Source of the DNA: a virus | IMG/VR virus record: IMGVR_UViG_3300045988_181101 | Reading direction: 5' to 3' (one strand) | Length of the DNA: 64,000 nucleotides | Shown here: positions 3,720 through 45,965 of the stretch, piece after piece | Position numbering within the stretch: position 1 is the stretch's first letter | Layout of the letters: the number at the start of each line of letters is the position of its first letter | Program-made: the position numbers and the translations under genes | The notes under the pieces: generated by a model | Seen by the model: the letters and a program-made list of their open reading frames with translations, nothing else | What the model was told of the DNA's origin: nothing | Databases searched by the model: none

Positions 3720-3724
3720 ATTTG

Positions 3725-8866: not shown

Positions 8867-9154
8867 TTACAATTTTATCTTTTGAGTGTAAATAAGTTCA
8901 CCTCTATATCCTCGTGAAATCAATTCATCCATTAATTGTCTTGGAGTGAAATCTTTTAATTTAGGATTACCATTTTCAAGATTACTTATTCTTTCTTTTC
9001 GTCTTGCAGTTCTCTTTTGAGCATAATTTTGGTTTTGCTTTTTTTGACAATCCCTACAATAAGCCTGAAGTCCATCAGGACGACTTGAATTTTTACTAAA
9101 AGAATCTAACGGTAAAATTCTTTCACAACGTGGGCAAAGTTTAGTTTCTTCCAT
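8867..9154 (-). CDS. stand-alone Zn-ribbon protein related to the N-terminal module of the HNH family in this window
   Basis: CPRCERILPLDSFSKNSSRPDGLQAYCRDCQKK parallels CSHCRRELSLDHFNKCKSCSDGLEAQCKDCKK of 32706..33446; no HNH domain follows. Confidence 0.55.
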   Translation of the reverse strand: MEETKLCPRCERILPLDSFSKNSSRPDGLQAYCRDCQKKQNQNYAQKRTARRKERISNLENGNPKLKDFTPRQLMDELISRGYRGELIYTQKIKL

Positions 9155-9230
9155 GACTATTCTTATTTAAAATTTATACATTATTTCTATAATTCTTCAA
9201 TTTTTTAGTTGTCCTTTTCTTTTGATATTG

Positions 9231-9261
9231 TAAAGATACGACTTATTTTGGAGATAACAAA
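9231..9261 (-). promoter_or_regulatory. candidate promoter (TTTG-N19-TATCTTTA)
   Basis: Minus strand TTTG-N19-GTATCTTTACA; 38 of 40 nt identical to the cassette upstream of ligA. Confidence 0.5.
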
Positions 9262-9350
9262 CGTTTATCTATATTTATGGTCGAAATTAAAGTTTATTAA
9301 GAAAGGACAACTTGTTTCACAACAAATCGCCCTTGAAACTAATTAAATAA

Positions 9351-9782
9351 TCATGGCTTGACAAAATAAAGGATTTTTGTTTCTTTTATATCTACAACTC
9401 TTGCAGTACAATAGTTTTCAGTTAATTCCTCTGAAGCAATTCTATTAGCTTCTTCAGTATCTTTTGCTTGGATCAAATAATTTATATTGTAAACCTTTTC
9501 TTTACCTTTTTCATTTATTTCAATCCAAACTCCTTTTACTACGTAATAAGAACCTTCTTTATCTTCATTAGGAATAAATCGAAATACATTCAACTCTTTG
9601 ATAGGTGAAATTTCAAAGTCTACATTTATATTTTCTTCACCCCATTTTGTAGCAAGTGCTTCAGCTTCAGTATAATTTACAGCTTCACAAGCTATGACGT
9701 TGGTGAACTTCTTAATTTTCATTGATGTTGAATTTTCATCTACATCATAGTACGTCAATGTTATTTCGAAAAACTTATCCAT
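9351..9782 (-). CDS. hypothetical protein
   Basis: ATG-initiated ORF overlapping the 3' end of the DpdA-like gene by 8 nt. Confidence 0.5.
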   Translation of the reverse strand: MDKFFEITLTYYDVDENSTSMKIKKFTNVIACEAVNYTEAEALATKWGEENINVDFEISPIKELNVFRFIPNEDKEGSYYVVKGVWIEINEKGKEKVYNINYLIQAKDTEEANRIASEELTENYCTARVVDIKETKILYFVKP

Positions 9783-10563
9783 TGTTATTGCAACATTTCT
9801 TCAAATATCGAACATTTGATTCGATAAGTTCCATTTGTTCTTCTTTGATTTCTTTTTCAAAATAATCTGAAGGTGTAGGAATACGTTCGAACTTCTCTAC
9901 TTTTTCAATATCTTGTCCATTTATTGCTGCAAGTATTGGATAACAACTATCTGTAGACCTAAAGATTTTCTCATTCTTATAAGGAATAAATTCTTTAGGA
10001 TCACCTTGTCCAAGAAAATGAAGAGGTTTCGACAATGAATTGTATGATTTCAATTTTGATACAACTTTACTTCTTGCAAATGCAATGTTATCTGTATTCA
10101 TTATATGTGGAATAGCTTTCTTACTCATTCCAATACAAGAAACATATCTATTCCACATAAAGAATTTATAACAATCATACCAATCTTCCCAATTTTTACC
10201 TTGAGGACAAGCAAGAATTGTCGTATTTAACAACTTTCCTTTTAATCTTGCTTCTTTCATCCATTCTAAGAATTGATTGAAATTGATTAATGTCTGTTTT
10301 CTATCGAACAATACGTCAAGAGGTATTACTTCATTAGGTTCTAATTCAAGTGTCAATTGAAATAATTCTTCATTAGTCAATATTTCACCTTCTTCTCCTG
10401 TACCATTATCAAGTATAGTAAAACGACCTTGTTTGATTGCTTCCTTTACATATTCACGATATCGTTCATTTTTTTTATAATATTGACCTATAATATAGAG
10501 ATTATTATCTCCTAACTCACTTAAATTTAGGTGTTTCATAGGAGGAGTTAAAAATATTTTCAT
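9775..10563 (-). CDS. dpdA: DpdA-like (tRNA-guanine transglycosylase superfamily) DNA transglycosylase, putative
   Basis: KPLHFLGQGDPKEFI...IFRSTDSCYPILAA resembles the TGT-family LMGVG-P...FDCV-PT segment; ILDNGTGEEG earlier in the protein; folE, queD and queE co-occur in the same genome segment. Confidence 0.55.
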   Translation of the reverse strand: MKIFLTPPMKHLNLSELGDNNLYIIGQYYKKNERYREYVKEAIKQGRFTILDNGTGEEGEILTNEELFQLTLELEPNEVIPLDVLFDRKQTLINFNQFLEWMKEARLKGKLLNTTILACPQGKNWEDWYDCYKFFMWNRYVSCIGMSKKAIPHIMNTDNIAFARSKVVSKLKSYNSLSKPLHFLGQGDPKEFIPYKNEKIFRSTDSCYPILAAINGQDIEKVEKFERIPTPSDYFEKEIKEEQMELIESNVRYLKKCCNNNG

Positions 10564-11204
10564 TTTAAAGATTCTTTTATATTGTTAATAATTTCTTCAA
10601 CATTATCTGGAATTTTTGCATTTTTAATTCCTGAATTCTCATATCTCCACAATGGTTGTAAGTTTTTATAATTGAAACAAATTCTTAATTGTGTTTCATC
10701 TAATAAATTAAAATAACTTCTTGGAACAATATGATCAACTGCCCAACCATCTTTTCCACCATAATTTTCCCAACTCATTCCTTCTTTAAATTGAGATTCA
10801 AGATGTCGTTTTAAATGTTCGATTGAACAACCAAGAAGGTCGAGTATGCTTTTATACCAATTACATTTATCAGGATTAGCTGGAGGAACATTCAATGCTT
10901 TGTAGAGTCTATTCATATATAACATCGAAGTTCTATAATTTTCATCTAAAAATCTCTTTTTACTTCTTCGAGATTCTGCACCAGTTTCCTGTCGTTTTTG
11001 TCGAATCTTCTTTTGAGAAATTCTTCCTTTTTCCGATTGTCTATATTTTTTATCAGCTAATTTTCCTTTCTCTGAATATTTATAACGAAATTTAGCAATC
11101 ATAGAACATTCTTTGCAAATATAATATAAACCATCTTTATACGATCTACATTTAAAGAATTCTGATTCGTCTTTATTTTTACAACATTTAGGACAATATT
11201 TCAT
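10560..11204 (-). CDS. HNH homing endonuclease with N-terminal Zn ribbon (paralogue 1)
   Basis: CPKCCKNK...DGLYYICKECS; WENYGGKDGWAVDHIVP...NYKNLQPLWRYENSGIKN; free-standing between the dpdA-like gene and the T-fold/kinase gene. Confidence 0.85.
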   Translation of the reverse strand: MKYCPKCCKNKDESEFFKCRSYKDGLYYICKECSMIAKFRYKYSEKGKLADKKYRQSEKGRISQKKIRQKRQETGAESRRSKKRFLDENYRTSMLYMNRLYKALNVPPANPDKCNWYKSILDLLGCSIEHLKRHLESQFKEGMSWENYGGKDGWAVDHIVPRSYFNLLDETQLRICFNYKNLQPLWRYENSGIKNAKIPDNVEEIINNIKESLK

Positions 11205-11251: not shown

Positions 11252-12142
11252 TTATACTTCCTCCGTTCTAATAATAAGACAATTAGGTTGATCAATACAC
11301 CAAGTGATTAATTCGTTTATGCCAAGTGATTCGTCACCATTTTCAATTTCTTCAAATGTAAGACCTTTATTCTTTTCTTTATCAACAAGTTTTTCAAATC
11401 TTTCTTTTCTTATTTCATTTGAAGCAGATAAATATATTATATTATAATCCAAATGAAGATGATTTAACTCACAAAGATACAACATTTGCTCTATAACAGA
11501 TTTTTGTCTACAACCAACTATATAGACGTGTGCATCTGAAGTTACTTTTGTTAAAATATGAAATATTCTTTTAGCTATTTCCTTAGAAAGGAATCCTTCG
11601 AAAATACGTTTTTCTTCTTGTTTGATTTTTCTTACAATCTCTCCAACCTCTACTGTTACACATCCAACCTCTTTTATCTTCTCATTAACATAATAAGATT
11701 TTCCTGAAAAAGCTTTTCCAACAACAAAAGTAACTAACGGTAATTTGTTATTATCTTCTTTTTCTTGTTTAATATTATCACATTCTTCTTTTTCAACTAC
11801 AGCATAGTTTTCACCATCTTCACTTACTTCAACACTATCAAAATCAAATTCCTTAAGTAATTGTTTTGCAATCATTTCACACGACATGGAACCGAAATCA
11901 TAACATTCACAATGTGATTCAAATACTGGAAAATTTTGATTTATATATTGTTTTACTTTTCTTCTTAACAATATAAACTCTTCATCACGATTATCATGAT
12001 TAACCCGTTTTTTACAGTTAAATTTAAAAATATGTCTGTGAGATTGTTCTAAAAACTTCACTAAATCACCATGATTTTTTGATGCATCCGGATAATTATG
12101 AAATCCTTCTACTTCAAAACGAATTCCTACAAATGTTTTCAT
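11252..12142 (-). CDS. two-domain protein: N-terminal PTPS/QueD-like (T-fold?) domain fused to a P-loop dNMP-kinase-like domain
   Basis: N-terminus FEVEGFHNYPDA...SHRHIFKF...SCE (His-x-His plus Cys-Glu, reminiscent of PTPS/QueD). C-terminus has Walker A GKAFSGKS and YIVGCRQKSVIEQM, reminiscent of T4 gp1-type kinases. Assignment by eye only. Confidence 0.4.
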   Translation of the reverse strand: MKTFVGIRFEVEGFHNYPDASKNHGDLVKFLEQSHRHIFKFNCKKRVNHDNRDEEFILLRRKVKQYINQNFPVFESHCECYDFGSMSCEMIAKQLLKEFDFDSVEVSEDGENYAVVEKEECDNIKQEKEDNNKLPLVTFVVGKAFSGKSYYVNEKIKEVGCVTVEVGEIVRKIKQEEKRIFEGFLSKEIAKRIFHILTKVTSDAHVYIVGCRQKSVIEQMLYLCELNHLHLDYNIIYLSASNEIRKERFEKLVDKEKNKGLTFEEIENGDESLGINELITWCIDQPNCLIIRTEEV

Positions 12143-25400: not shown

Positions 25401-25522
25401 TTTGAAAGTTGATCATCCTGAGTTCTATTCTCTCCTATTACAGCAATAGGTTTGTGTACAAAATCATAATCAAGAGATTCAAATGGACCAAAATTCTTTA
25501 ATACTAATCTTCTTGGATACAT
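22481..25522 (-). CDS. Rad50/SbcC/T4 gp46-like recombination ATPase, interrupted by an intein
   Basis: N-extein ...GENRTQDDQLSNGGGK joins C-extein SFFGQGLFYGIYG to rebuild Walker A NGGGKS. Long coiled coil with central CPKC zinc-hook-like motif. C-terminus has the signature/Walker B region LLIDEILESVD. Confidence 0.85.
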   Translation of the reverse strand: MYPRRLVLKNFGPFESLDYDFVHKPIAVIGENRTQDDQLSNGGGKAQSLDSDIMTLSGSIKMRDVRIGTKILGSDGKEQVVVAIHPQGIIDCYEITFNDGTKVKCNNEHLWKVASCYTPKKWVIKSLKDIMKQSIQCNCGNSNPYRYRVPTVDCIDYPYQKVDIDPYTLGALLGDGGFTQKIIGFTSPDEEIVNRLNFYKKFELVQSSNKLDYRINKVQNQEDAFWKILEKYNLFGLYSSEKFIPKEYMYNNKEVRLELLRGLLDTDGYVDKRGKVELTLTSKQLIEDVAFIARSLGCLCHKVSHLKSSYKNKKGEKIQCKDSYRLRIVPPKGLDLFHLKRKSERLMQEKKMNCVDRRIVDIQYVGKEEMQCITVSNKDGLYLTNNFIVTHNSFFGQGLFYGIYGVNLRGNVDKKLIRYGFDVAYTCVQIYCPIRKQTLSIEREIRIKGSSTLRLSLIDENEKVTPVNCATVLDGNRYVSNWIEISAEDAKSYYIVTKDNYNSFFKASNTEKLALISRFINFSKIDKTKDVIIEKIDEITEEKRSLEDEKSLLTGKLSVYEEQLEQENSKDQEAERNERIEEIRQEIQKIDHKTQDLQILLGSYQKDLEDKFKEKEDLEKIKEKVEKELSSIDLNRFQEVYSEIDKDLNQYKEDKRSTEKEIDKHNDRIRELKSTLNSIDNILSGVIVCPKCHHEFLLKCDKNIDELKEEKDKCNNSIEKEKEEKDECNQIVIDLDEVIKEYNSLRKETENEENSILQSQRSIKNKLNTVIQSIDTIDTQILKLNKNLKSGKVEVELAYETIEHKEKLIQEILKEPLKEKDTSNIEKRIESINKSISKIASKIEDKTNDIFNINQWTQRFKDFKMYLAMEQLKNIQFSANDILKKMGSDLRLMIEGFKKGANGKLKEEITPYIFRDEMELFTFYSEGEKARCEIALILALQSMINTTKKYGGMQFLLIDEILESVDSLGIENITTSISFFKQPILIVTHVPKLNEEISQIRVIKENGVSRLEV
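24347..25387 (-). mobile_element. intein (347 aa) with LAGLIDADG homing-endonuclease domain; class 3-like (Ala1, Trp-Cys-Thr triplet)
   Basis: Starts AQSLDSDIMTLSGSIKM and ends FIVTHN followed by S. Block B is NNEHLW, block F MQCITV, block G VTHN. LAGLIDADG motifs are LGALLGDGGF and LLRGLLDTDGYV. Confidence 0.8.
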
Positions 25523-30641: not shown

Positions 30642-32654
30642 TTATGTTAAAACAGTAAATAACGAATTTATTGTCGTCTGTAAAATGTATTCTTGTCTAA
30701 ACTTATCCCATTGAATATAACCATTAAGAAGTAAAATGTTCCCCTTACTATTTCTTAATGATTCTGCAACTTCTTCAAATAATTCAGGAAATACATAGAC
30801 GTTTATAAAATCATAATTACTTTCTAATGTTATAGTAGCAAAAAGACCTTTCTTAGATTTTTTCTCTACTAAATCTACAACATATCCACCTATAGAAGCT
30901 AAGCGATATTTTGTAGTGCCTGTCCAGTATTTAACTTGACTAATATCGTAGAAATCATGTTCGTCATCATAAAGTTGAGGAATATGATAATTTCTTACAA
31001 GATATTCATAATCAAAAAATGCAAGTCCTGATACCTTCTTTTGTTGTAAAGTCCACCACCAATCATTTTTCTCTTTACGAGCTTTAATAATATTAGTCAA
31101 AAGATCTTTATCTTCAAGAATCTTCACTTTCTTATTTTCTCGATAGGATTCAATCAATTTCAATCTTTCATGAGGACGTTCTATATTCTCCAATTTATCA
31201 AACGCACCACTATAGATGAGATTTTCAATAACAGATTTGTTTACAGGAGATCCTTTTATTACACATCTATCTATAAATTCATCAAGTGAAAAGAATTCTC
31301 CATTCTCATGTCTTTCCTTTGAAATAAATTCTTGAGCTTTTTCACCACATTGTTTAACTGAATTCAAAGCCCAATACATACTTCCTGTTTTGACATCTGA
31401 AACAATATTTATATCAGACTTATTTATATCTACAGTGCGAAGTTCAATGTTACCTGATTTCTGAATTTCATTAACATAAAAAGGATAATCTTTACTTTCA
31501 GCATAGGAGAATGTTACAGACCAAAACTCAATAGGATAATGCACTTTCAACCAAAGGCAATTATATCCATTTCGCGAATAAGCGATTGCATGGGATTTGT
31601 TAAACGCATAGGCACCAAATTTCACCATTTGATCCCAAAGTTCTTTTGCATAAGATTCTTCTACACCAAATTTATTGATATAACCTTTTACAAACTTTTC
31701 TTCATACGATTGAAGTTTTTGTAAATTTTTTTTACCAATAGCTTTTCGGACACCATCAGTGGTCTCTAAGTCAAAATCAGCAAGATACTGACAGAGACGC
31801 ATTATATCTTCTTGGTACACTATAAAGTTTTTTGACTTTGATAAAACTTTTTCTGCACCTATTGGAGCTTCTTTATCAATTTCTCCTTTCTTAGCAAGAA
31901 TGTATTCATTGTGAAAATTATTCTCAATAGGTCCAGGACGATATAAAGCTGCACATATCCCCATCTCATCAAGACTTTCAGGCTGCATCTGAACGCAATA
32001 AGACGAAAGTCCTTTTGCACCGAAGTGGAAAATATTCGATAAAAATCCTTTCTTTATATATTCAAAGACTATTCTATCATCTAAAGGAATATCTTTATAT
32101 AAATCAAGTTTTATACCGTGATTTTTATAAATCAAATCAAGTATATCAGATAATTGTGATAATTGTCTGATACCTAATATATCTTCTTTCAAAAATCCAG
32201 CATCTTCAATTTCTGAACCTTCCCATTGTGTAACCATTAAACCTTGTTGTTTCTTGATAGGAGTCCATTGAGCAGAGGTTTTCTCATCAGGTAATACTAC
32301 TGTACCACAAGCATGAATAGAAGATGTCTTCGGTGTATTAAGAATAATCATCATATCATCAAAGAGTTCTGTGTTATCTTTGACAAATTCTCTCATTTCT
32401 TTATCCTTACAAATAATTCTAAAGAAATCCTCTGCACTTTCCATCCCTTCTTCATCTCTTAATCTTGATGTAAATCGTCTTACTGCTCCAATAGGTAAGT
32501 TGTGACAGCGAGCAAGGTCTGTAATGGCAGCTTTAAGTTTTAATGTACCATAAGTTCCAAGAGAAACGACTTGTGTTTCGCCAAATCGACTCTCCATGTA
32601 TTTCTTTACTTTTTCTCGTCCTTCAGACGAAAAATCCGAATCGATTTCACTTAG
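30642..32654 (-). CDS. dnaE: DNA polymerase III alpha subunit, C-terminal part (palm catalytic Asp pair onward); 5' boundary approximate
   Basis: The frame is open upstream of the track ATG back to a TAG at 32664-32666 and encodes (SPG)LSEIDSDFSSEGREKVKKYMESRFGETQVVSLGTYGTLK. This is the PDxDxDF...GT segment of DnaE. Later motifs include ALYRPGP, FNKSHA and an OB-fold-like C-terminus. Confidence 0.85.
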   Translation of the reverse strand, partial: LSEIDSDFSSEGREKVKKYMESRFGETQVVSLGTYGTLKLKAAITDLARCHNLPIGAVRRFTSRLRDEEGMESAEDFFRIICKDKEMREFVKDNTELFDDMMIILNTPKTSSIHACGTVVLPDEKTSAQWTPIKKQQGLMVTQWEGSEIEDAGFLKEDILGIRQLSQLSDILDLIYKNHGIKLDLYKDIPLDDRIVFEYIKKGFLSNIFHFGAKGLSSYCVQMQPESLDEMGICAALYRPGPIENNFHNEYILAKKGEIDKEAPIGAEKVLSKSKNFIVYQEDIMRLCQYLADFDLETTDGVRKAIGKKNLQKLQSYEEKFVKGYINKFGVEESYAKELWDQMVKFGAYAFNKSHAIAYSRNGYNCLWLKVHYPIEFWSVTFSYAESKDYPFYVNEIQKSGNIELRTVDINKSDINIVSDVKTGSMYWALNSVKQCGEKAQEFISKERHENGEFFSLDEFIDRCVIKGSPVNKSVIENLIYSGAFDKLENIERPHERLKLIESYRENKKVKILEDKDLLTNIIKARKEKNDWWWTLQQKKVSGLAFFDYEYLVRNYHIPQLYDDEHDFYDISQVKYWTGTTKYRLASIGGYVVDLVEKKSKKGLFATITLESNYDFINVYVFPELFEEVAESLRNSKGNILLLNGYIQWDKFRQEYILQTTINSLFTVLT

Positions 32655-33649
32655 TCCGGGAGACTACCTAATGACGTAGTCTCCCGGATCTCCTTTCTTA
32701 AATCTTTAATTGTTATCATTATTTATTTCTTGTTTTAAAAATTCAACCAATTCTTCAACGTTGTCAGGAACCTTATTTGATTTTTTAATATTATCAACTT
32801 TCCATAACGGCTGTAGATTCCTGTAATTAAGACAGATACGTTGATTTTCTTCTTTAGTCAGATCAAAGTAAGATATAGGAATAATATGATCAATCTGCCA
32901 ACCGTCTTTTCCACCATAATTCTCCCACGTCATTCCAGGTTCGAATTGTTGTTCGAGATGAACTTTCAGTTCACCAAGAGAACAACCAATTAAATCAAAT
33001 GTACTGTTTTTCTTCGATCCATTTAATCTCGTTCTCAATCCGTTTCTCAAAAGGTGAGCTAATTTAAAATTCAAATCTTCCTTTCTCCTTCTTCGACTAT
33101 TAATCGATCTTTTTAATCGACCTTGATCTGATTTTAAATATAAATTCGATTGTAAAATTCTCTTCTCTTTATTCTTTTCGTAATAATCTTTATCATATAA
33201 AGACCGTCTTTCTTTATTTTCTCTTCCCCTCTCTAATATCACTTCTTTGTGATTTTGATAATAAAGTTTATCGCTTTTCTTTCGATTTTCAGATTTTAAA
33301 TACAATTTAGTATATTCTTTCTTGCAATCTTTACACTGAGCTTCTAATCCATCTGAACAGCTCTTACATTTGTTAAAATGATCAAGTGAAAGTTCTCGTC
33401 TACAATGACTGCAAATCTTCAATCCTGTCTCAAAATTAGCTTTCATACTTTATATAAAATTTTTCATTTTTCTTTATATGTTTATTCGTTATAATCCATC
33501 AATTCATCATCTTCTTGTAATTCACCAGCCTTAACAATCATCTTTTCTTTATTACGTAAAATTCGCACAAAATCAGTAGATTTGATACAAATAGGTGAGG
33601 AACTATTTTCGTTTATAACTACCTCTTCAACTTTATCGTGACGTATCAA
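32655..33649 (-). mobile_element. HNH-carrying insertion of about 1 kb splitting dnaE: candidate group I intron (boundaries approximate)
   Basis: DnaE homology stops at ...LFERFLTTGR (R codon at 33650-33652) and resumes at LSEIDSDF (32654 downward). The interval holds HNH ORF 32706..33446 and a 13-bp GC-rich hairpin at 32655-32688. Confidence 0.5.
32706..33446 (-). CDS. HNH homing endonuclease with N-terminal Zn ribbon (paralogue 2), inside dnaE
   Basis: CSHCRRELSLDHFNKCKSCSDGLEAQCKDCKK; WENYGGKDGWQIDHIIP...NYRNLQPLWKVDNIKKSN. Confidence 0.85.
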   Translation of the reverse strand: MKANFETGLKICSHCRRELSLDHFNKCKSCSDGLEAQCKDCKKEYTKLYLKSENRKKSDKLYYQNHKEVILERGRENKERRSLYDKDYYEKNKEKRILQSNLYLKSDQGRLKRSINSRRRRKEDLNFKLAHLLRNGLRTRLNGSKKNSTFDLIGCSLGELKVHLEQQFEPGMTWENYGGKDGWQIDHIIPISYFDLTKEENQRICLNYRNLQPLWKVDNIKKSNKVPDNVEELVEFLKQEINNDNN

Positions 33650-35092
33650 GCGACCTGTTGTTAGGAAGCGTTCAAATAGAAGATCGTATTCAAGAGGATT
33701 AATATAATTAAGTTCCAATAGATAAGAAATGAGACTCCCACAAGCTGACCCTCTACCAGCCCCTAAAAGTATATTTTCTTTCTTACACCAATTGACGATA
33801 TCTCTCAACATTAAAAAGTAATCGACTACATCTCCTTCTTCAATTACCTTCATTTCTCTTTCAAGTCGTTCTTGAATAACTTCATCTGAATATTTCTCAA
33901 GAAGCTCAGGATGATTTTCAATACCTTTAAATATCAAATCTTCAAACATATCAATATTAGTTTCGTATTGAAGAGCTTCTTCATCAGTCATGTGATAAAC
34001 AGGCATGTGTCGTATTTGCGTTTCAATTACGAAATTACATTCAAATGATACTTCTTTTAGATTTGAAACGGCTCTTTCCCACGTAGAAAAGAATTTTTCA
34101 TCATTACCGAATAAATAACTTAACTCTTCAAAATACTCTTGATAATTTTTGAAATATTGATTTTTACTTTCGTGTGTAATTATCTTACCAATAGAATTTA
34201 ATTTCTTTTTAACGGGATACCATTCTTTCTCTATATAATAAGCATCACACATTGCGATAGGTTCAAGTTCACTTAAAAAGAATCTTTTTAAATTATTTAA
34301 ATAATCTATATCCTTTTCTTCTTTTTCAAATACAGTTGTATCAAGTTGATAATAAGGTACTATTTCTTTTAGATTTGTAGGTATATTTCTATATTCTATT
34401 GATTTAGGATCCCAAATTAAAACTAATCCATCATAACAATCTTCAATATCTTCTTGCGTAACAAAAGCTTTATCATTTGTATTTATTATTTCATTCAATT
34501 TTAGAAGGTTCTGCCAACCTATTTGATTTTTTACAAATGCTTTAATAGTGTACTTCAAATCTTTTTTCTCGTCTACAATTATGATCTCCATTCCTTGAAT
34601 AGAACGTAATCCTGCTTTTTGACAAGCATTTTGAAATTTCATACAGCCTGCTAATGTTCCTTTTTCACAGATACCAAGACTTGTGATTCCTAAGAATTTA
34701 GCTTTCTCACACCATTTCTTATAGAGACCTACACTATTTAATAATTCAAGAGGACCATGAATCCCAAGATAAGTATCTATATAAAATTCTTCATCTTCAA
34801 GTTTAGCTTTACCTAACCATTTTATAGGATTTAATTTTACTTGCAATTCATCTCCCTTTTTAAGAGAATACCAAATACTACCAAAACTAAAAATGTAATT
34901 ATCACAATCAGTTCTATCGCATGCCCAATGAAAATCTTCATCAAAAAGAACTTTCTTACCTTCTTCCCATTCTATAGGTTCAAATAGTTCATACGTTTGA
35001 TTATTTATCTCAATGACATAATCTCCTAATTCTTTGTAATCTATAAAATTGTCATTAAGATATTGAATTAATTCTTTATATAATTCTTTCAT
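33650..35092 (-). CDS. dnaE: DNA polymerase III alpha subunit, N-terminal part (degenerate PHP domain and start of palm); 3' boundary approximate
   Basis: GAGRGSACGSLISYLLELNYINPLEYDLLFERFL matches the DnaE GRGSAAGSLV...LFERFLNPER block. The track ORF continues 55 non-homologous codons to the stop at 33482. Confidence 0.85.
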
Positions 35093-35752: not shown

Positions 35753-35760
35753 TAAAGGTC
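35753..35760 (-). promoter_or_regulatory. variant box GACCTTTAGG
   Basis: Minus strand GTAGACCTTTAGGTC, 46 nt upstream of ATG 35706; the same 13-mer core occurs at 5501-5515. Confidence 0.3.
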
Positions 35761-36359
35761 TACATTTTCTCATTACGTTGCAACATTTGGACATGAGAAA
35801 ATATTATCTCTTTTAATTGTTTAAGTCTCTGTTCTACGGAACCTGATATAGTCTGATAAGGAATGCTATTTAATTGAAGAGTTGATCGAATAATCAGATC
35901 GATCTCTTTCTGAAATTCTTTTTTCATCGACCTTATACCGTCACCAACTACATTGAATTCAATAGGGAAATATATCACCGTTCCTAAATCATTCTTTCTT
36001 TCTTTTAAGATAGAAAGTTGTCTTTCTGTTTCAATTCGAGTAAACTGTTTTTCTTCTTCAGACATTTCTTTGAAACTTAGTATCCATAAAGTATATGAAA
36101 CTACATCAATGATACATCTATCACTTATCAGACTTTTCTTTTGATCGAGGACTTTCATATACTCATCAAAAATAAGTTTCTGAGACTTCCAATCACCTTC
36201 TTCGTTGATTGTAACTTTCTTTTTCTTTAAAAGATCTCTTACTTTCTCATTGCTGAATAAAAACTCTTTAAAATCAGGATCTTTTTTAGCTTCCTCAAAA
36301 AGAGTGGTTTTGCCGGTCCCTTGAGAACCGGCAAATTGAATTTTCAAATTATCTTTCAT
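35760..36359 (-). CDS. P-loop NTPase, NadR/AAA_28-like kinase fold
   Basis: Walker A FAGSQGTGKTTL; later DRCIIDVVSYT; assignment by eye. Confidence 0.45.
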   Translation of the reverse strand: MKDNLKIQFAGSQGTGKTTLFEEAKKDPDFKEFLFSNEKVRDLLKKKKVTINEEGDWKSQKLIFDEYMKVLDQKKSLISDRCIIDVVSYTLWILSFKEMSEEEKQFTRIETERQLSILKERKNDLGTVIYFPIEFNVVGDGIRSMKKEFQKEIDLIIRSTLQLNSIPYQTISGSVEQRLKQLKEIIFSHVQMLQRNEKM

Positions 36360-36370
36360 TATTTTGATAA

Positions 36371-36910
36371 TTATCTATTATCTCCTGAACCATGTATCAC
36401 CCCTCTACGAGCTCTCGAAGCAAGTTTATTAATATTACCTTGAGCAATCTCATTCATTGGTTTATCAAACACAATTGATGCAAGATCAACAAAACTCTGT
36501 AAAAGCTCATCCCATCTTTGTTGAATCTTTTCTCTTCTACTTTCAGGGAAAATACCAAAATCATTCTTTTCTGTATCCCAATCATCTCTCAAATATTTCT
36601 TCATTTGTTCGCAAATCGCTCCTGAATGAATAGATACTTTAAGGAGAGCTGCTGTAGGATTTTCACTTGGTTCCGGCCAATCAATTCTTTCTTTTAAATT
36701 GAATTCGGTTCGAATTGCTGCCATACACCATAAACAATCTTGAAATTCTGCTTCAATTGCATCAATTGGAGCTTCTTCATTAAGTTTTTCATAAAATTCT
36801 CCGACCTCTCCGGCAAGCCCGAGTGTAACATAAATCAATGCTATCTTTGGAGAATACATTTTTGTTGTGCTTGCTAAATTCTCGTAAGATTGATAATTCG
36901 TAACTTCCAT
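36371..36910 (-). CDS. mazG: MazG-like nucleoside triphosphate pyrophosphohydrolase
   Basis: GLAGEVGEFYEKLNEE and EFQDCLWCMA (EXXE...D-LW metal-binding pattern of all-alpha NTP-PPases). Confidence 0.75.
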   Translation of the reverse strand: MEVTNYQSYENLASTTKMYSPKIALIYVTLGLAGEVGEFYEKLNEEAPIDAIEAEFQDCLWCMAAIRTEFNLKERIDWPEPSENPTAALLKVSIHSGAICEQMKKYLRDDWDTEKNDFGIFPESRREKIQQRWDELLQSFVDLASIVFDKPMNEIAQGNINKLASRARRGVIHGSGDNR

Positions 36911-37625
36911 TTACTTCTTTATTAATTTGTTCTACAATAAATAAATAATTCTTAGGTAATCGATCGTTTTTAGATCCATTTTCTTTCGACCACATTGGTT
37001 GACAGTTTCTATAATTAAAACAAATAAGAATCTCTTTTTCATTTGTTAAATCAAACCATCTAATAGGAACAATATGATCAACTGCCCAACCATCTTTTCC
37101 ACCATAATTGTCCCAGGTCATTCCAGGCTCAAATTGACTTTCTAAATGTTGTTTAAATTCATCAATGGAACAACCGAGAAGATCGATGGTGTGACAATCA
37201 TTATATCCTTTTGTAAGATGTCTGTGAACTCGATTTCTAAGTCTTTTTATCAATCGATTGTTTACATTAGAATTGATTCTTTCTAATTCTTTTACTGCTA
37301 TCTGTTCTTTATGAGTTTGACGATACTTAATATTCGCTCTTTTATAAGATTCAGATTTTGCATTTAATCTTGCTCTTTGTCGACAAAGAGCATCGTATTC
37401 AGGATCAATTTGACGTTTAATAGCTTTAGAAATTGCTGCTCTTTTACTTAAAACATCTTTTCCGGTTTTCTCTATTCTACGTTGATTTTGTTTCTTTTTG
37501 CATTCCTTACAACAAAAATGAAATCCGTCAGGACTATTCTTCCAATGATGAAATTCAGACAAAGGTTTTTCTTGCTTACAATATCTACAAACTTTAACTC
37601 CTTCCGTTTTAATTTCTGAATCCAC
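36789..37625 (-). CDS. HNH homing endonuclease with N-terminal Zn ribbon (paralogue 3), GTG start, 3' end reads into mazG
   Basis: CRYCKQEKPLSEFHHWKNSPDGFHFCCKECKK; WDNYGGKDGWAVDHIVP...NYRNCQPMWSKENGSKN; the last ~40 codons overlap mazG in another frame. Confidence 0.8.
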   Translation of the reverse strand: MDSEIKTEGVKVCRYCKQEKPLSEFHHWKNSPDGFHFCCKECKKKQNQRRIEKTGKDVLSKRAAISKAIKRQIDPEYDALCRQRARLNAKSESYKRANIKYRQTHKEQIAVKELERINSNVNNRLIKRLRNRVHRHLTKGYNDCHTIDLLGCSIDEFKQHLESQFEPGMTWDNYGGKDGWAVDHIVPIRWFDLTNEKEILICFNYRNCQPMWSKENGSKNDRLPKNYLFIVEQINKEVNGSYELSILREFSKHNKNVFSKDSIDLCYTRACRRGRRIL

Positions 37626-37626: not shown

Positions 37627-38271
37627 TTATTTATGATTAATTTTCCAAATTTGGATTTGTCTTAAAAACTCATCTCGACTATTCATAGAATTATCTAAAA
37701 ATAATCCTGAACAATAATTTGTTACCATAGAAGAGTTATCTTCTGCGCCTCTCATACTTACACACATATGTTCAGCTTCAATATAAACAGCAATTCCTCT
37801 AACAGAATCACCGAACACTTCTTTAAGATAATCATGAATCTGTTTTGTCAACTGTTCCTGAAGTTGAGGTCTTTTTGCAAACCAATGAACAATTCTATTT
37901 AATTTAGAAAGTCCTACGACATCTCCGCCTTCTTGTGGAATGTAAGAAATGTGGCAAACTCCGCAAAAAGGTAAAAAATGATGGCTACACAATGAATTAA
38001 CTTCAATACCCATTTCTGTTACCATCCCTGTATAACCAGTTCCTGGGAACGTTGCAATTCTTGGTCTTTCTTCATAAACTCCTGAAGTAATTTCATTTAC
38101 CATCATCTTTGCAACACGATAAGGAGTTTTTACCATATTAGGATCATTCTTCCAATCATATCCTAATGCTTCAAGAAACTTACCGTAGGCTTCTTCTGCA
38201 TTTTTCATCATTTCCTCTTTTCTTTCTTTAGAAAGAACAATGTTTTGACCTGCTTTTAATTTAAAATCCAT
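37627..38271 (-). CDS. folE: GTP cyclohydrolase I
   Basis: SLCSHHFLPFCGVCHISYIP and VVGLSKLNRIVHWFAKRPQLQEQLT, the FolE type I signatures. Confidence 0.95.
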   Translation of the reverse strand: MDFKLKAGQNIVLSKERKEEMMKNAEEAYGKFLEALGYDWKNDPNMVKTPYRVAKMMVNEITSGVYEERPRIATFPGTGYTGMVTEMGIEVNSLCSHHFLPFCGVCHISYIPQEGGDVVGLSKLNRIVHWFAKRPQLQEQLTKQIHDYLKEVFGDSVRGIAVYIEAEHMCVSMRGAEDNSSMVTNYCSGLFLDNSMNSRDEFLRQIQIWKINHK

Positions 38272-38295
38272 ATTATTTATTCCTTTCTTTTTATA

Positions 38296-39594
38296 TCAAA
38301 CTCCTCTTTTTGTTCCCCAAATTATAATTTGCAATCTATCTGAATAGTGATATCCATGTTCAGCACAATATTCTGCTACCATTTGTCTTTTTTTCAATAA
38401 TTGTTCTTCATTGATACCTTCAGGCATTAAACAAACAGAACCTTTTTTAGGCTTCAGCTCTTTCAAAAGATTTTCAATTTCTTCAAAATCTTCTCTTTTT
38501 GATACAACAAACTTTAACTGATAATTTTGAGCATATTTCATCCATTTTTTAAAATTATCAATTCTAATTCTATTCTTTTCATGAATATTTTCATACTTAG
38601 TTCCTATTGGAGTAGAATCTCTTAATTTAGGTGAAATTGATACTAAATCTATCATTTTCATTAAAGATTCGTCTAAACAAACAGTTCCATTTGTTTCTAA
38701 AGTTATAAGTTTCTTATTATTTTTAGCAATAATTATAAGTTCTTCAATTCTATTGGAAATGCAAGGTTCGCCTCCAGATAAAACGATGTGTCTTATTAAT
38801 GGGTTTTCTTTGATAAGATTTTTAACGTCTAAATTGGAATAAGAACCTTTTTCCGGTTTCCAAGATGTAAATGATGTATCACACCATCTACATTTTAAAT
38901 TACATCCTATCGTTCTAATAAATAAAGAAGGTATTCCTGCATATCTACCTTCACCTTGAATTGATTTAAATATTTCTGAAAGATATTTTTCCTCAAATAT
39001 TTCTTTCTTTAAAAATTCGACTAATTCTTCAACATTATTCGGAACTTTTGCTCCTTTAGAATCATTTTCTTTTGCCCATAACGGTTGTAAATTCCTGTAA
39101 TTGAAACAGATACGTTGATTCTCCTCTTTTGTTAAATCAAAATAAGAACAAGGAATAATATGATCGACATGCCATTTTCCATAATTATCCCAACTCATTC
39201 CTTCTTTAAATTGAGATTCAAGATGTCGTTTTAAATGTTCGATTGAACAACCAAGAAGATCGAGTGTATGTGTCGATTTTCGATTGTTTTTACATTTTAA
39301 AGCATTATAACAACGAGACCTTAGAATTTGAGTTAAATTCAAATTTAAATTATTTTTAACCTTTTCTCGTCTTTTTCTATCGTCTTCTTTGGCATATCCT
39401 AAAACTCGTCTTCTTATTGTCTGCTTTCTTTGAATTCTTTTACCACTTTCAGAACGATTAAATTCACTTTTACATTTTTTACAATAATTTTCTAATCCAT
39501 CGTTTGAAGATTTATTTTTTCGGAAACAATCTAATGATAATTTCTTTTTACAACGACTACAAATCTTCATTCCTTTTTCAAAATCAGCTTTCAT
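38296..39594 (-). CDS. queE: in-frame fusion: HNH endonuclease (paralogue 4, aa 1 to ~200) plus 7-carboxy-7-deazaguanine synthase QueE (aa ~203-432)
   Basis: HNH part: CSRCKKKLSLDCFRKNKSSNDGLENYCKKCK...HVDHIIP...NYRNLQPLWAKEN...VPNNVEELVEFLKKEI. It continues without stop or ATG into YLSEIFKSIQGEGRYAGIPSLFIRTIGCNLKCRWCDT (QueE radical-SAM cluster motif) and LSGGEP. Confidence 0.85.
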   Translation of the reverse strand: MKADFEKGMKICSRCKKKLSLDCFRKNKSSNDGLENYCKKCKSEFNRSESGKRIQRKQTIRRRVLGYAKEDDRKRREKVKNNLNLNLTQILRSRCYNALKCKNNRKSTHTLDLLGCSIEHLKRHLESQFKEGMSWDNYGKWHVDHIIPCSYFDLTKEENQRICFNYRNLQPLWAKENDSKGAKVPNNVEELVEFLKKEIFEEKYLSEIFKSIQGEGRYAGIPSLFIRTIGCNLKCRWCDTSFTSWKPEKGSYSNLDVKNLIKENPLIRHIVLSGGEPCISNRIEELIIIAKNNKKLITLETNGTVCLDESLMKMIDLVSISPKLRDSTPIGTKYENIHEKNRIRIDNFKKWMKYAQNYQLKFVVSKREDFEEIENLLKELKPKKGSVCLMPEGINEEQLLKKRQMVAEYCAEHGYHYSDRLQIIIWGTKRGV

Positions 39595-39599
39595 TATTA

Positions 39600-40193
39600 T
39601 TATTTAATTTGTTTTTCTACTTTAGGATTAATAAAATATTTTCCATCAGATTCTTTAGTATGACGAAAGAAACTATGTAATTCTTCTGACCAATCATTTA
39701 ATACACCAACAGAATAAGCTGTAGATAAATCTACAGGAAGTAAATCAAAATCATTTATTGTTGCTTCAGCATAACCTGTTGCAGTTTCATGATAAATTAC
39801 CTTATTACATTTTACATTCCCTTCGCCATTATTAAATTCTGTTGCTTTAATCATTGCATTAATCATATAACAAATATACAATGCAAGATTTTCAGCAGAA
39901 GGACTTATAGGAAGTTCAATCCAACGATCGCACCATTTTTTCATATCGTTCTTATATTCTTCCTTGTCTTTATTCCAAATCAGCATACAATGATCAAAAG
40001 AATCGATCCATTGTCCTATATTTTTCTTAATCAAAGAGAAATCTACAATCATTCCTCCATTATCAAGTTTATCTGAAGTTAAAAATACTTCAATGACTGC
40101 TGAATGACCATGAATACTTTTTCGACAACGATTTGTTGAACAATTGCGTACAATATGCGCTCCTTCAACTTTAAATAATTTTCTAATCTGCAT
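39600..40193 (-). CDS. queD: 6-carboxy-5,6,7,8-tetrahydropterin synthase
   Basis: FKVEGAHIV...CRKSIHGHSAVIEV (Cys...His-Gly-His QueD motif). Confidence 0.8.
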   Translation of the reverse strand: MQIRKLFKVEGAHIVRNCSTNRCRKSIHGHSAVIEVFLTSDKLDNGGMIVDFSLIKKNIGQWIDSFDHCMLIWNKDKEEYKNDMKKWCDRWIELPISPSAENLALYICYMINAMIKATEFNNGEGNVKCNKVIYHETATGYAEATINDFDLLPVDLSTAYSVGVLNDWSEELHSFFRHTKESDGKYFINPKVEKQIK

Positions 40194-40233: not shown

Positions 40234-40713
40234 TTACTTTAAAGCATCTATCGAAATGGTGTGCAACAGTTTAATTTTTACATAAATATATGGAACAAAT
40301 GTCTTCTTTCCATTTTTATAAATCTTGATAGAATCATAAATGGGATAATTGTTCTTGATCTTATATTCAATATTGTCAAATATCACTGTTTCACCAGGTT
40401 TTAAAAGATAAAATTTGTCCCAATATTTAGTCTTCTGATTCTTAGGTGAATATTGAAATGAAGGTAATCCTTCTTTATTTAGAAACTCATTTTCATAAAA
40501 TGATTTAAATTGTTCATCAGAATCAAAAATACAACTTAACGAGAACTTTTCTGATAATTCTATAATTTTAAACTTCTTCTTATTTGCTACATCATTATTT
40601 ATTTTCTTGAATTCAGCTTGTTCATATATCAATGCTCTTAATTTATAACTAAAATATTCCAATTGAAGAATTCTAAGAAAATCTTCTTTTGATAATTCTC
40701 TTGTCTTTTCCAT
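40234..40713 (-). CDS. hypothetical protein (start trimmed)
   Basis: Track start 40719 is TTG; first ATG at 40711-40713. Confidence 0.45.
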   Translation of the reverse strand: MEKTRELSKEDFLRILQLEYFSYKLRALIYEQAEFKKINNDVANKKKFKIIELSEKFSLSCIFDSDEQFKSFYENEFLNKEGLPSFQYSPKNQKTKYWDKFYLLKPGETVIFDNIEYKIKNNYPIYDSIKIYKNGKKTFVPYIYVKIKLLHTISIDALK

Positions 40714-40766
40714 ATTCAAAAATTTTCTTGTAAAATTACAAAAAGAATTCTTGAATACGATTATCT

Positions 40767-43226: not shown

Positions 43227-45965
43227 TTAAATCAAATTTATTCCTACTTGAACTTCTTTCTCACACTCTCTCAACGAGTTAATCGAAATAAAGGTACTCA
43301 TACAAACATCATCGTGTCCCGAAGCAGCTTCAAGTTTACCATTATCACTTTTAAACGTTATAGATGAGAATTCACCAAACATTAAGTCAACTGCTTGTCT
43401 CGTTTCTCCTACAGCATAAGGACATTTTAATTGACCTCTTTCAAACATTGCTGAAAGACTTGGTAATCCTGTATAAAGATCCTTCTTATTTCCTTCAGTC
43501 GTAGTAAAAGTTTCAATATTTTTCAATCCTCTTTCTCTTGCTAACGCAGATAATATGGACTGAAATCCGTTTGATTCACATACAATTTTATTAGGTCTAA
43601 ATAATCTATCAAGTTGAACAATCTTATCTATCTGCTCATTATGAGACATTCCTTTTTGTCTGTAATAAGTAAGTAGATAATAATTCTTCATTGAATCAAT
43701 ACCCCAAACTGAATATACAGTATAGTCTGCACCAATATTACCTGAAACAGCAAAGTCTACACCTATATGAACTCTTTGTAATTTTATAGGATAATCATCT
43801 ATAGATGTAGCGAATCTTATATTTTCCATTCCTACAGTTGATCTCATCAAATATTCATAAGGAAATATTGTAGATGAATCACTAATAGGTACTACAAGAT
43901 ACTCACGATTAAACACGATTGTTCCAAGTTCTTCTCTCTTTGCAAGAATCTGATCAAACGTATATCTATCAGGAGCAAGTGGTCTACCATCAGGAAATAT
44001 AACTGGATATTCAAAACAGTAAAATCGCTTATCAGCTTTCAATACTTGATATAATTCATTTGGTGCAGAAGAATATGGTGTTCCACAAACAATAAAATAT
44101 CCATAAGGCTCTACGATAGGCTCAATTGTTCCTTTTAGAAGTTCTTTAAGTTTTTCTCTTTGTTCGTCTGAATATAAAGAAGATTCATCAGGCATATCAT
44201 CACATAATACAGCTCCTACGTGTAGACCGCGAATGAAACCATCGCGACCACGAATATGTAATGTGCTTCCTGTTTCAGTTGTTATACCTGTTTCTCCAAT
44301 AGATGCTTTACCATTTGGATTAAGTTTCTCAGCTATCAAATCATTTGTTTCAATTTCCTCTCTTACTTTTTTAATCTGAACTTTCGCAAGTGTCATCGTA
44401 GATGTGATATAACACGTTTCTTTTCTGTTTTGATTATCTACAGTATTTTGTCTCCAGGGAACAGGTCGACAATAACTCCATAATCTCCAAAGAATAAATG
44501 CATAAGACCACATATAACTATTATGAACAACAGTTCCATCACTGAGTAGAAATTTATGATCACCATCTAAAGCAAATCCATAATAGTCTCCTTCTCCTGC
44601 TTGAGTAATAGTTAAAGCTGATTTATTACCTTGTTGAACTTTATCATATTGTTGAGCTTGCTTTCTCTTTACTTTAGTAGGTATTGTCCAAATTTTACCG
44701 GATATATAAATTCTGTAGAATTTATAATTTTTATAACTATATTCACCAATTTGTATATTTTTTCTCACATGTGTTTCTATAGAAGTACATTGAAATCCAA
44801 GTGACAAAGCAAGATAACGAATTTGTTCTATAAGCTCATATTTCTTTAAAGATAATTCAAACGAACATGAATTTCTCGAAGTTCCTTTTCGTTTTAAATA
44901 TTTTTGTTCATTTAAATGACCGTCCGAATCCAAGATACCTGCTAATAATTGAAGTCTCTGTTGACGAGAACCTTTCATATAAACATCAGGAATATGCTTG
45001 TTTTGAATTAAATTCAAATCTCTCAATTTAGATGATAAATCTACTCCGGAAATTCCGTTTAACATTTCTTTTTCTTTATAAGAATATTTTCCTCCTATCC
45101 TTTTACTATATTCTTTAATTGCATTTCTTACTTCTATATCCGGATTTGTTATGTAATAATTGCAATTCGTACCATCACCAAGCCAAAGTCCAAGCCAATA
45201 TGGATCAATAGAAAGTTCTTTTTCAGGAAGTTCCCATCCATCAATCTTTCTGTATCCAAAAATTTTCTTCCGACCATAACCTGCATGTTTAGGGATGTCT
45301 TCAACAGGAATGTCTTTATAAATTCTTTTTGTTACTCTTTTATTATCTATTGTTGTTGGTCGATCCCAAATACAACAAACCAAATGACCTTCATTCACAT
45401 AATAATCTTTAGCATAAGTTTGATGAACTTTATACATCTGCGACCGACCTCTATGAAGTTGAAGAACTGTTCTTGGAGTATTATCTATTCCCATCACTTG
45501 ATCTCCAACTTTAATATCTTGAACAGGCTTTAAAGAACCATCATACATAACTACTAACTCGTTGATACTGAGACATTTACCTGAACCGCGACCACAAAGA
45601 TAACAGCTCCACGGAAACAGTTGTGTCATATTACCCCATTCAACATTTCTCCAACCCATCCTAAAATTAGGGAGCATTGTCAAAATGAAGTAATTCAATG
45701 AATAAATCTTCAAAGTTGTATCCATTGAAGCTTTTACATTCTCTATATAATCAAGACTTTCAGAATCAAGTGTTCTACCAAGATACAGTGTTTTTTCAGT
45801 TTGAGTAAGTATTTCCTTTAACATTTTATCAACATCATTATTATAACCTTCAAGAAGTTGATTTAATGCTTTAGGAGATAGATCCTCAATTATTTTATCT
45901 ACAGTATCATATAGATAATTCATTTGATTTACTGAAAGTAAATCTTTACCATCTAATGTTAACAT
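43227..45965 (-). CDS. terL: terminase large subunit, interrupted by an intein
   Basis: The exteins join as CYLCGRGSGK + SYMWSYAFILW (Walker A GRGSGKS). Walker B is AVLCDDMPDE. The C-terminal RNase H-like nuclease has IGVDFAVSG, VCESNGFQ and GHDDVCMS. Confidence 0.85.
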   Translation of the reverse strand: MLTLDGKDLLSVNQMNYLYDTVDKIIEDLSPKALNQLLEGYNNDVDKMLKEILTQTEKTLYLGRTLDSESLDYIENVKASMDTTLKIYSLNYFILTMLPNFRMGWRNVEWGNMTQLFPWSCYLCGRGSGKCLSINELVVMYDGSLKPVQDIKVGDQVMGIDNTPRTVLQLHRGRSQMYKVHQTYAKDYYVNEGHLVCCIWDRPTTIDNKRVTKRIYKDIPVEDIPKHAGYGRKKIFGYRKIDGWELPEKELSIDPYWLGLWLGDGTNCNYYITNPDIEVRNAIKEYSKRIGGKYSYKEKEMLNGISGVDLSSKLRDLNLIQNKHIPDVYMKGSRQQRLQLLAGILDSDGHLNEQKYLKRKGTSRNSCSFELSLKKYELIEQIRYLALSLGFQCTSIETHVRKNIQIGEYSYKNYKFYRIYISGKIWTIPTKVKRKQAQQYDKVQQGNKSALTITQAGEGDYYGFALDGDHKFLLSDGTVVHNSYMWSYAFILWRLWSYCRPVPWRQNTVDNQNRKETCYITSTMTLAKVQIKKVREEIETNDLIAEKLNPNGKASIGETGITTETGSTLHIRGRDGFIRGLHVGAVLCDDMPDESSLYSDEQREKLKELLKGTIEPIVEPYGYFIVCGTPYSSAPNELYQVLKADKRFYCFEYPVIFPDGRPLAPDRYTFDQILAKREELGTIVFNREYLVVPISDSSTIFPYEYLMRSTVGMENIRFATSIDDYPIKLQRVHIGVDFAVSGNIGADYTVYSVWGIDSMKNYYLLTYYRQKGMSHNEQIDKIVQLDRLFRPNKIVCESNGFQSILSALARERGLKNIETFTTTEGNKKDLYTGLPSLSAMFERGQLKCPYAVGETRQAVDLMFGEFSSITFKSDNGKLEAASGHDDVCMSTFISINSLRECEKEVQVGINLI
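44520..45575 (-). mobile_element. intein (352 aa, class 1: Cys1...His-Asn / +1 Ser) with LAGLIDADG domain
   Basis: CLSINELVVMYDGSLKPVQDIKVGD...LLSDGTVVHN followed by S; LAGLIDADG motifs WLGLWLGDGT and LAGILDSDGH; Cys1 codon at 45573-45575, Asn codon at 44520-44522. Confidence 0.9.

Follow-up and report, generated by a model that had tools for sequence, protein, structure and literature searches.

The closest described relative of the locus studied here is found in the Cellulophaga phage phiST. The DNA of this phage contains 302,000 residues of 2'-deoxy-7-deazaguanine (dDG) per 10^6 nucleotides, while 2'-deoxyguanosine (dG) was undetectable and the deoxynucleoside of the precursor 7-carboxy-7-deazaguanine (CDG), dCDG, was measured as zero (Cui, Hutinet et al., NAR 2023, PMC10516641). 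The CDG decarboxylase of phiST was proposed in that study to be DpdL, a QueD-like T-fold protein in which the motif LxxxHRHxF replaces CxxxHGH, and DpdL co-occurs with the absence of QueC in published surveys (PMC10516641).

Here, we describe a related gene set in the IMG/VR virus record IMGVR_UViG_3300045988_181101, of which we analyzed a stretch of 64,000 nucleotides (the window). The genes folE, queE and queD are present in the window but queC is not, and the initial annotation had concluded from this that the encoded pathway appears to stop at CDG. We arrive at a different view, since a DpdL homologue is encoded at 11252-12142. The gene set is a new member of the pathway described in 2023, which explains the missing queC and makes the apparent puzzle an ordinary one. 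It is probable that guanine in the DNA of this phage is replaced by dDG through a phiST-type pathway. The initial annotation had also considered that unassigned neighbours might supply new downstream chemistry. In naming the T-fold/kinase fusion at 11252-12142 among these, it pointed to the right gene, but the chemistry is not new in kind, as it was proposed in 2023 for phiST.

All components of the phiST locus, namely FolE, QueD, QueE, the MazG/dUTPase-like protein CGPG_00068, DpdL (CGPG_00067), CGPG_00066 and DpdA3 (CGPG_00065), have a homologue in the window, and QueC is absent from phiST as it is from the window genome. The phiST order is QueD-QueE-FolE-MazG-DpdL-CGPG_00066-DpdA3, and the window keeps the two blocks QueD-QueE-FolE-MazG and DpdL-kinase-DpdA3. 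DnaE, SbcD and an exonuclease are also found nearby in both phages. DpdL and CGPG_00066 are separate genes with a 23-nt overlap in phiST, whereas they form one polypeptide in the window. Unlike phiST, the window contains a second, thymidylate-kinase-like gene after mazG, as well as four invading HNH genes, one of them fused to queE. Finally, phiST is a marine phage of 79 kb, whereas the window belongs to a phage of approximately 105 kb known from gut metagenomes.

Genes for CDG synthesis and the absence of QueC

The genes folE, queE and queD were confirmed as contiguous on the minus strand, with intergenic gaps of 5 and 24 nt (Table 1). All motifs noted initially were recovered from the translations: CSHH and QLQEQLT in FolE, GCNLKCRWCDT and LSGGEP in QueE, and CRKSIHGH in QueD, which matches the QueD signature CxxxHGH. 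The QueE part of its open reading frame (ORF) was recognized by phrog_2076, 'QueE-like radical SAM' (E 6e-54, aa 204-432), and by the NCBIfam QueE models (E 4e-26), and is 32% identical to the QueE of phiST in a tblastn comparison.

No QueC was identified in the 64-kb window, in agreement with the initial annotation. A tblastn search with E. coli QueC gave a best E-value of 7.3, and the motif SGGxDS occurred in none of the six frames. In the phage collection, the same query recovers 313 records, at identities as low as 25%. A Pfam search of the minus-strand ORFs of at least 60 aa, except 62900-63808, found no members of the QueC, QueF, GATase or TGT families; the proteins identified were replication, recombination and structural proteins. 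For ORF 62900-63808, the precomputed Pfam record shows a weak match to Sheath_initiator.

The search was extended to a composite genome of approximately 105 kb, in which the remaining 41 kb or so were filled from IMG/VR and JGI contigs that were 93-100% identical, until the circle closed. Five diverse QueC sequences served as queries (E. coli, Cellulophaga phage phiSM, halovirus HCTV-1, the Gat-QueC of phage 9g and a mycobacteriophage). The tblastn searches of the composite genome yielded nothing at E <= 1, and a hidden Markov model (HMM) built from the five sequences gave a best E-value of 0.27. Pfam matches in 20 ORFs outside the window were to a portal protein, a BACON domain and an ADP-ribosylglycohydrolase; deazapurine enzymes were not found among them. 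The motif SGGxDS was not found in 1.57 Mb of related loci. The suggestion that queC lies elsewhere in the phage genome is thus excluded for the composite genome at the sensitivity of tblastn and HMM searches, and no bona fide queC came to light there. The phage lacks queC because it carries the phiST-type gene set, and borrowing of a host QueC is unnecessary to account for the genes observed.

A DpdL homologue fused to a kinase-like domain

The ORF at 11252-12142 begins with the sequence MKTFVGIRFEVEGFHNYPDASKNHGDLVKFLEQSHRHIF and contains LEQSHRHIF at aa 31-39, which is the exact LxxxHRHxF signature of DpdL. Residues 1-119 are 44% identical to phiST DpdL, CGPG_00067 (E 2e-31), and match phrog_17812 (E 4e-30). 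The structural model of this domain resembles E. coli QueD (4ntk) with a template modelling (TM) score of 0.71. In 38 divergent representatives of the fusion protein, the LxxxHRHxF motif was invariant in all sequences, and the complete set of invariant residues in the DpdL domain was H15, L31, H35, H37, F39, R52, E55, S87, C88, E89 and E108.

The DpdL domain is followed, in the same reading frame, by a kinase-like domain, forming a single polypeptide of 296 aa. Residues 126-294 are 35% identical to CGPG_00066 (E 1e-18). The model of the fusion (predicted local distance difference test, pLDDT, 86) displays two domains connected by a disordered linker at aa 120-130. A Foldseek search with the C-terminal domain retrieved the UMP/CMP kinase 5ukd, followed by 1uke and 2c95, at E-values of about 1e-6, and adenylate, polynucleotide and deoxynucleoside kinases were retrieved as well. 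The P-loop GxxxxGK[ST] is present. Its residues G142, G147 and K148 are invariant, as are G210 and R212, in 38/38 representatives. Other basic positions are also well conserved among the 38 sequences (R/K171 in 36, R245 in 32 and R248 in 37). In profile searches, the P-loop and the motif 'EVGxIVR' ('evgdivrk') aligned with the P-loop and the 'STGDLLR' motif of AK1, with weak E-values of 0.2-0.9 but recurrently across many AK1 entries. We infer, rather than read from an alignment, that the other conserved arginines may be equivalent to the acceptor-phosphate arginines of nucleoside monophosphate (NMP) kinases, which are found in the GDLLR-type motif, after strand 3 and in the LID. The position of the general base of hydroxyl kinases varies among the 38 representatives, being D in 18, S in 6, E in 5 and Q in 3. 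Pfam matches to the kinase domain were to generic families only: AAA_18 (11 of 27 members, best E 4e-8), AAA_33, AAA_17, Zeta_toxin and APS_kinase. Neither the Pfam ADK family nor an equivalent curated family was matched by this domain, and NCBIfam returned nothing.

Full-length homologues of the fusion were found 73 times, at 39-99% identity and on contigs of up to 107 kb. In an exhaustive search with the fusion protein, performed on representatives of clusters at 50% identity, the best 150 were classified by length and motifs. These comprised approximately 45 fusions of full length, with identities as low as 30%, about 85 stand-alone DpdL proteins and 4 stand-alone kinases. By this distribution, the fusion is old and widespread and cannot be put down to faulty assembly or to a peculiarity of one phage. 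The catalytic residues are conserved in both halves, each of which is therefore under selection for enzymatic function. In isolated phages, detection of the kinase was limited to those in which DpdA3 is also present; in other phages with DpdL, such as Acidovorax phage ACP17, the match to the fusion protein covered the DpdL part only.

Another 15 or so metagenomic DpdL proteins bear extensions that were not recognized. Among ten DpdL proteins with long extensions, Pfam gave no hit except for two weak matches to AAA_18.

The word 'kinase' is not used in the phiST study, and CGPG_00066 was there set aside as absent from other deazaguanine phages (PMC10516641). A search of the later literature for DpdL, for DpdA3 or for a kinase involved in dDG synthesis found no paper on these besides PMC10516641. 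The fused DpdL-kinase architecture is new, and it links a kinase to the unproven step from CDG to 7-deazaguanine (DG).

DpdA3 and the neighbouring genes

The DpdA-like transglycosylase that the initial annotation placed at 9775-10563 proved to be of the DpdA3 type, being 39% identical over its full length to CGPG_00065 of phiST (E 4e-63). The best match of its AlphaFold2 model (pLDDT 95) in the PDB was 7ui4, 'DNA preQ0 insertase DpdA' (E 2e-5), followed by more than 40 entries for tRNA-guanine transglycosylases (TGT). The protein is short, with 262 aa as compared to 344-413 aa for the matched chains, and the TM scores normalized to the target were 0.36-0.49. The tRNA TGT enzymes have a C-terminal zinc-binding subdomain with three Cys and one His. 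In DpdA3, C207 and H182 are the only invariant Cys/His residues among 34 homologues, and there is no conserved Cys/His zinc cluster. The protein has no match to the Pfam TGT family (PF01702) at E <= 0.01, and for the phiST protein HHpred was needed to see the TGT relationship (PMC10516641). Among isolated phages, homologues of this DpdA3 are confined to the Cellulophaga phiST group, Chryseobacterium phage MA9V-3, Flavobacterium phage immuto and the Campylobacter firehammerviruses, which are the lineages defined as carrying DpdA3 in PMC10516641. In divergent relatives of the window phage, the fusion gene directly precedes dpdA3, with a 4-nt overlap or a distance of 4 nt.

The MazG-like protein is 29% identical to CGPG_00068 in a tblastn comparison (E 8e-13), and its gene is located after folE as in phiST. 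In close relatives (L097-L104), mazG is always followed by the gene for the thymidylate-kinase-like protein, a counterpart of which is missing from the phiST locus examined. The gene encoding a DUF4494 protein follows dpdA3 in the window. It does so directly in four relatives (L093-L096), and is separated from dpdA3 by a Glyco_hydro_108 gene in another (L092); these relatives are only 39-46% identical. The DUF4494 protein may be a further partner of the system. No NCBIfam name was obtained for the DpdL-kinase, DpdA3, MazG, the thymidylate-kinase-like protein, the product of ORF 40234-40719 or the DUF4494 protein.

ORF 40234-40719, listed initially as a candidate neighbour, is conserved in relatives, and nothing ties it to the pathway. 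It was not assigned as a member, its matches being a sub-threshold one to Pfam Prophage_tailD1 (E 0.004) and none in PHROG.

An adenosylcobalamin-type ribonucleoside-triphosphate reductase-like gene is located just upstream of the DpdL-kinase gene (12809-15136, minus strand; NCBIfam RTPR E 3e-56, under the cut-off). In one relative, this gene contains an intein.

Table 1. Coordinates and characteristics of the predicted deazaguanine genes, HNH genes and associated features.
Feature	Coordinates	Strand	Characteristics
folE (GTP cyclohydrolase I)	37627..38271	-	214 aa; Pfam GTP_cyclohydroI E 2e-50; 45% identity to phiST FolE
queE ORF	38296..39594	-	432 aa; HNH domain and QueE part
QueE part (7-carboxy-7-deazaguanine synthase), aa ~201-432	38296..38994	-	Radical_SAM E 1e-13; CxxxCxxC motif
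HNH domain fused in frame to QueE N-terminus (endonuclease-VII-like)	38995..39594	-	phrog_1035 E 8e-22, aa 6-201
queD (6-carboxytetrahydropterin synthase)	39600..40193	-	197 aa; Pfam PTPS E 7e-21; NCBIfam queuosine_QueD E 3e-17
DpdL domain, aa 1-119	11786..12142	-	QueD-like T-fold; LEQSHRHIF; proposed CDG decarboxylase
NMP-kinase-like P-loop domain, aa ~131-296	11255..11752	-	homologue of phiST CGPG_00066; phrog_19196 E 3e-16
DpdA3-type guanine transglycosylase	9775..10563	-	262 aa; phrog_20335 E 2e-54
MazG-like nucleoside-triphosphate pyrophosphatase	36371..36910	-	phrog_229 E 2.5e-18; homologue of phiST CGPG_00068
Thymidylate-kinase-like P-loop protein	35760..36359	-	Pfam AAA_28 E 3e-10; phrog_2107 'thymidylate kinase' E 2.8e-25
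DUF4494 gene	9351..9782	-	Pfam E 1e-15; linked by position only
Free-standing HNH gene between folE and mazG	36789..37625	-	36-39% identical to other HNH copies; absent at this site in L098 and L100
HNH gene between DpdL-kinase gene and dpdA3	10560..11204	-	phrog_1035; absent in divergent relatives
HNH paralogue	32706..33446	-	
HNH N-terminal zinc-ribbon remnant	8867..9154	-	
BACON-domain protein / ADP-ribosylglycohydrolase (in structural region)	L076 12285-13577; L054 12308-13159		outside window

HNH genes inserted into the locus

The window contains four paralogous HNH genes that are 36-47% identical to each other, in addition to one N-terminal zinc-ribbon remnant, and their presence varies between relatives. 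Three of the four copies are located in the deazaguanine genes. As inserted selfish elements, the HNH genes stand outside the chemistry of the pathway. One of them, overlooked in the initial annotation, makes up the first 200 aa or so of the queE ORF. No in-frame ATG, GTG or TTG was found at the junction between the HNH and QueE parts, and therefore the gene encodes an HNH::QueE fusion protein. Most close relatives, with a 100% identical FolE, have a QueE of 282 aa that lacks the HNH domain. The QueE part in the window is only 38% identical to this 282-aa allele, except for the last 40 residues or so. Given this divergence from the HNH-free allele, a queE segment of foreign origin appears to have come in with the HNH gene.

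Another HNH gene splits the alpha subunit of DNA polymerase III (DnaE) into two ORFs at 30642-32597 and 33482-35092 on the minus strand; inteins, a TnsA-like endonuclease and other inserts are found at the same place in relatives. Domains of inteins or homing endonucleases are located inside an SbcC/SMC-like protein (22481-25522, minus strand; matches to LAGLIDADG_3 and Hom_end) and inside the large terminase (43227-45965, minus strand; match to Hom_end_hint). No group I introns were found around the HNH genes with Rfam at the gathering threshold, which reported two tRNAs only.

The phage genome and its relatives

The window has a G+C content of about 29% and all of its genes are located on the minus strand. 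It overlaps a metagenome scaffold of 105,449 bp in ENA over 11.1 kb, with 100% identity. When 6 kb of the locus were compared by megablast with 50,697 phage records, no match was found, so that there is no close cultured relative in this collection. The phage belongs to a large and diverse clade of phages of approximately 100-107 kb, which recurs across many metagenome assemblies of the human-gut type. The clade is abundant in the gut, and its members are probably phages of Bacteroidota.

The BACON-domain protein, the CarboxypepD_reg/PEGA tail proteins in the window and DUF4494 all point to a Bacteroidota host. A sigma-70 family factor with regions 2 and 4 is encoded at 4809-5312. An intergenic stretch of 87 bp at 9184-9270 is repeated with 94% identity in the early-gene region outside of the window (L076 272-356) and may represent a regulatory element. 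Two adjacent tRNA genes were predicted by Rfam at 3644-3795 on the minus strand, only one of which, tRNA-Gln (UUG), was called by ARAGORN.

Proposed pathway and alternative explanations

In the phiST-type pathway that we consider probable, FolE, QueD and QueE would convert GTP to CDG, which are the established reactions of these families. The N-terminal DpdL domain encoded by ORF 11252-12142 would then remove the carboxyl group from CDG to yield 7-deazaguanine, without any need for QueC, as proposed by Cui et al. 2023 (PMC10516641). DpdA3 would place 7-deazaguanine in DNA in exchange for G, as suggested by phiST, in which dG is undetectable. Conserved partners are the MazG-like pyrophosphatase and, fused to DpdL, the NMP-kinase-like domain.

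Several points weigh against this interpretation. The expression of dpdL and dpdA in E. coli produced no dDG, and the decarboxylase activity of DpdL is still a proposal (PMC10516641). The QueD of the window gave no match to the phiST locus, including its QueD, at E <= 1e-3 in tblastn. The two gene modules are adjacent in phiST, whereas in the window they are separated by approximately 24 kb with replication genes between them. The queE allele is a fusion with an HNH domain, and its enzyme activity is a prediction. A general partnership of the kinase with DpdL had to be rejected, since the DpdL gene of phage ACP17 lies between genes for hypothetical proteins and for QueE, and neither side has an annotated kinase. 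Moreover, dDG as the product is a prediction from the genes.

We infer that the kinase is a working component of the branch from CDG to dDG, and the fusion may explain why DpdL and DpdA gave no dDG in E. coli. A domain of the NMP-kinase type would presumably be unable to act on a free base, and decarboxylation should need no ATP. A bold scheme for the role of the kinase, which we consider unlikely, is the synthesis of dDG at the nucleotide level before replication. MazG would convert dGTP to dGMP, DpdA3 would swap the base on the mononucleotide, DpdL would decarboxylate the base or the nucleotide, the fused kinase would phosphorylate the deazaguanine monophosphate, and DnaE would incorporate dDG. 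The DpdL-kinase fusion would then mark the missing component of dDG synthesis, with the kinase starting the path to dDGTP, a role to which we likewise attach a low probability. Such a scheme is consistent with the NMP-kinase fold predicted for the domain fused to DpdL, with the retention of the P-loop lysine and of three to four arginines, one of them in the motif that aligns with 'GDLLR' of AK1, and with the variable general-base position, which is better suited to phosphate than to a hydroxyl group as the acceptor. It also agrees with the adjacency of the MazG, DpdL, kinase and DpdA3 genes in phiST, with the minimal 262-aa barrel of DpdA3 that lacks a conserved Cys/His zinc cluster, and with the failed reconstitution from DpdL and DpdA, and it would parallel the pathways to hydroxymethylcytosine in T4 and to the Z-genome. 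To our knowledge, however, no enzyme of the TGT family uses mononucleotides; all known members act on polynucleotides. Replacement is 100% in the DpdA3 phages, and the ADG nucleoside has been detected in the cytoplasm of cells infected with CP220 (cited via PMC10516641), which fits synthesis before replication, but the same study, the sole paper on DpdA3 that we found, argues for insertion after replication. Furthermore, DpdA3 phages that make dADG or fdPreQ1 reach 100% despite having no tblastn match to the kinase domain. The domain might just as well be a polynucleotide kinase, given a match to 4gp6 at E 1e-5, and as such it may serve in DNA processing.

Two other explanations would leave dDG out of the DNA altogether. 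If the pathway ended at CDG, the DNA would carry dCDG and the DpdL-like domain would serve another role. The nucleoside dCDG does occur naturally, at 149 per 10^6 nucleotides in Sulfolobus virus STSV-2, and DpdA3 might insert CDG (PMC10516641); the activity of DpdL is, moreover, unproven. However, the gene set of STSV-2 is different, with homologues of DpdA and ArcS only, whereas phiST, with the same gene set as the window, has dDG and zero dCDG. The metal-site residues of DpdL are also strictly conserved. The presence of a DpdL homologue makes dCDG in the DNA, as put forward in the initial annotation, unlikely, and a pathway that stops at CDG is in our assessment highly improbable. We would be similarly surprised if a host QueC completed the pathway, leaving preQ0, ADG or a later derivative in the DNA, or if the genes merely boosted the queuosine or folate metabolism of the host without DNA modification. 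Many bacteria encode QueC, and the host of this phage may do so as well. Yet DpdA3 and DpdL would be pointless for tRNA queuosine, the phages that rely on QueC chemistry encode their own QueC, as illustrated by the 313 phage records, and the association of DpdL with QueC absence in published surveys (PMC10516641) speaks against it.

Comparison with other systems

The identification of a phiST-type dDG gene set in the window demonstrates that such sets are not confined to marine phages but are found in a large and diverse gut clade, the DNA of which may therefore contain no normal G. If G is replaced, restriction and CRISPR targeting would be affected, as would sequencing chemistry and how well these phages are recovered in viromes. 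The DpdL-kinase fusion represents 'Rosetta-stone' evidence, in that fused proteins argue for joint action. The step from CDG to DG has never been reconstituted, and the fusion is an undescribed and testable clue to this step. Should synthesis before replication turn out to be true, DpdA3 would be the first enzyme of the TGT family to act on free nucleotides.

Among isolated phages other than phiST, Chryseobacterium phage MA9V-3 (PV245944; approximately 103 kb) has the genes for DpdL, the kinase and DpdA3 adjacent and in the same order, and also folE and queE. Its DpdL is the C-terminal 114 aa or so of a 293-aa protein (XQU63047, L002 8461-9342), of which the N-terminal 180 aa or so match nothing in the window. 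The kinase is encoded by a separate gene, and thyA and recA are scattered among the deazaguanine genes. The DpdA3-type transglycosylases of Flavobacterium phage immuto and the Campylobacter phages are only 24-28% identical to that of the window. Complete replacement of G has been reported for these phages, of which immuto encodes QueC and QueF whereas the Campylobacter phages make dADG (PMC10516641). The DpdL-kinase protein gave no tblastn match in the DpdA3 phages of either group.

The systems that produce preQ0 or dG+, with DpdA1, DpdA2 or bacterial DpdA, such as phage 9g and the dpd cluster of Salmonella, achieve a partial replacement of under 0.1% to 30% (PMC10516641). They have in common with the window the front end of FolE, QueD and QueE and an inserting enzyme with the TGT fold. 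However, they need QueC or Gat-QueC, and their DpdA is larger, with 413 aa in 7ui4 as compared to 262 aa in the window. Base replacement before replication is exemplified by T4, with its dCTPase, dCMP hydroxymethylase and dNMP kinase, and by the Z-genome phages, with MazZ, PurZ and DatZ. As an analogy only, these systems also place an NTP pyrophosphatase and an NMP kinase beside the base-modifying enzymes, and replacement is 100%. Their modifying enzymes are not homologous to those of the window, in which this part is occupied by a transglycosylase of the TGT family.

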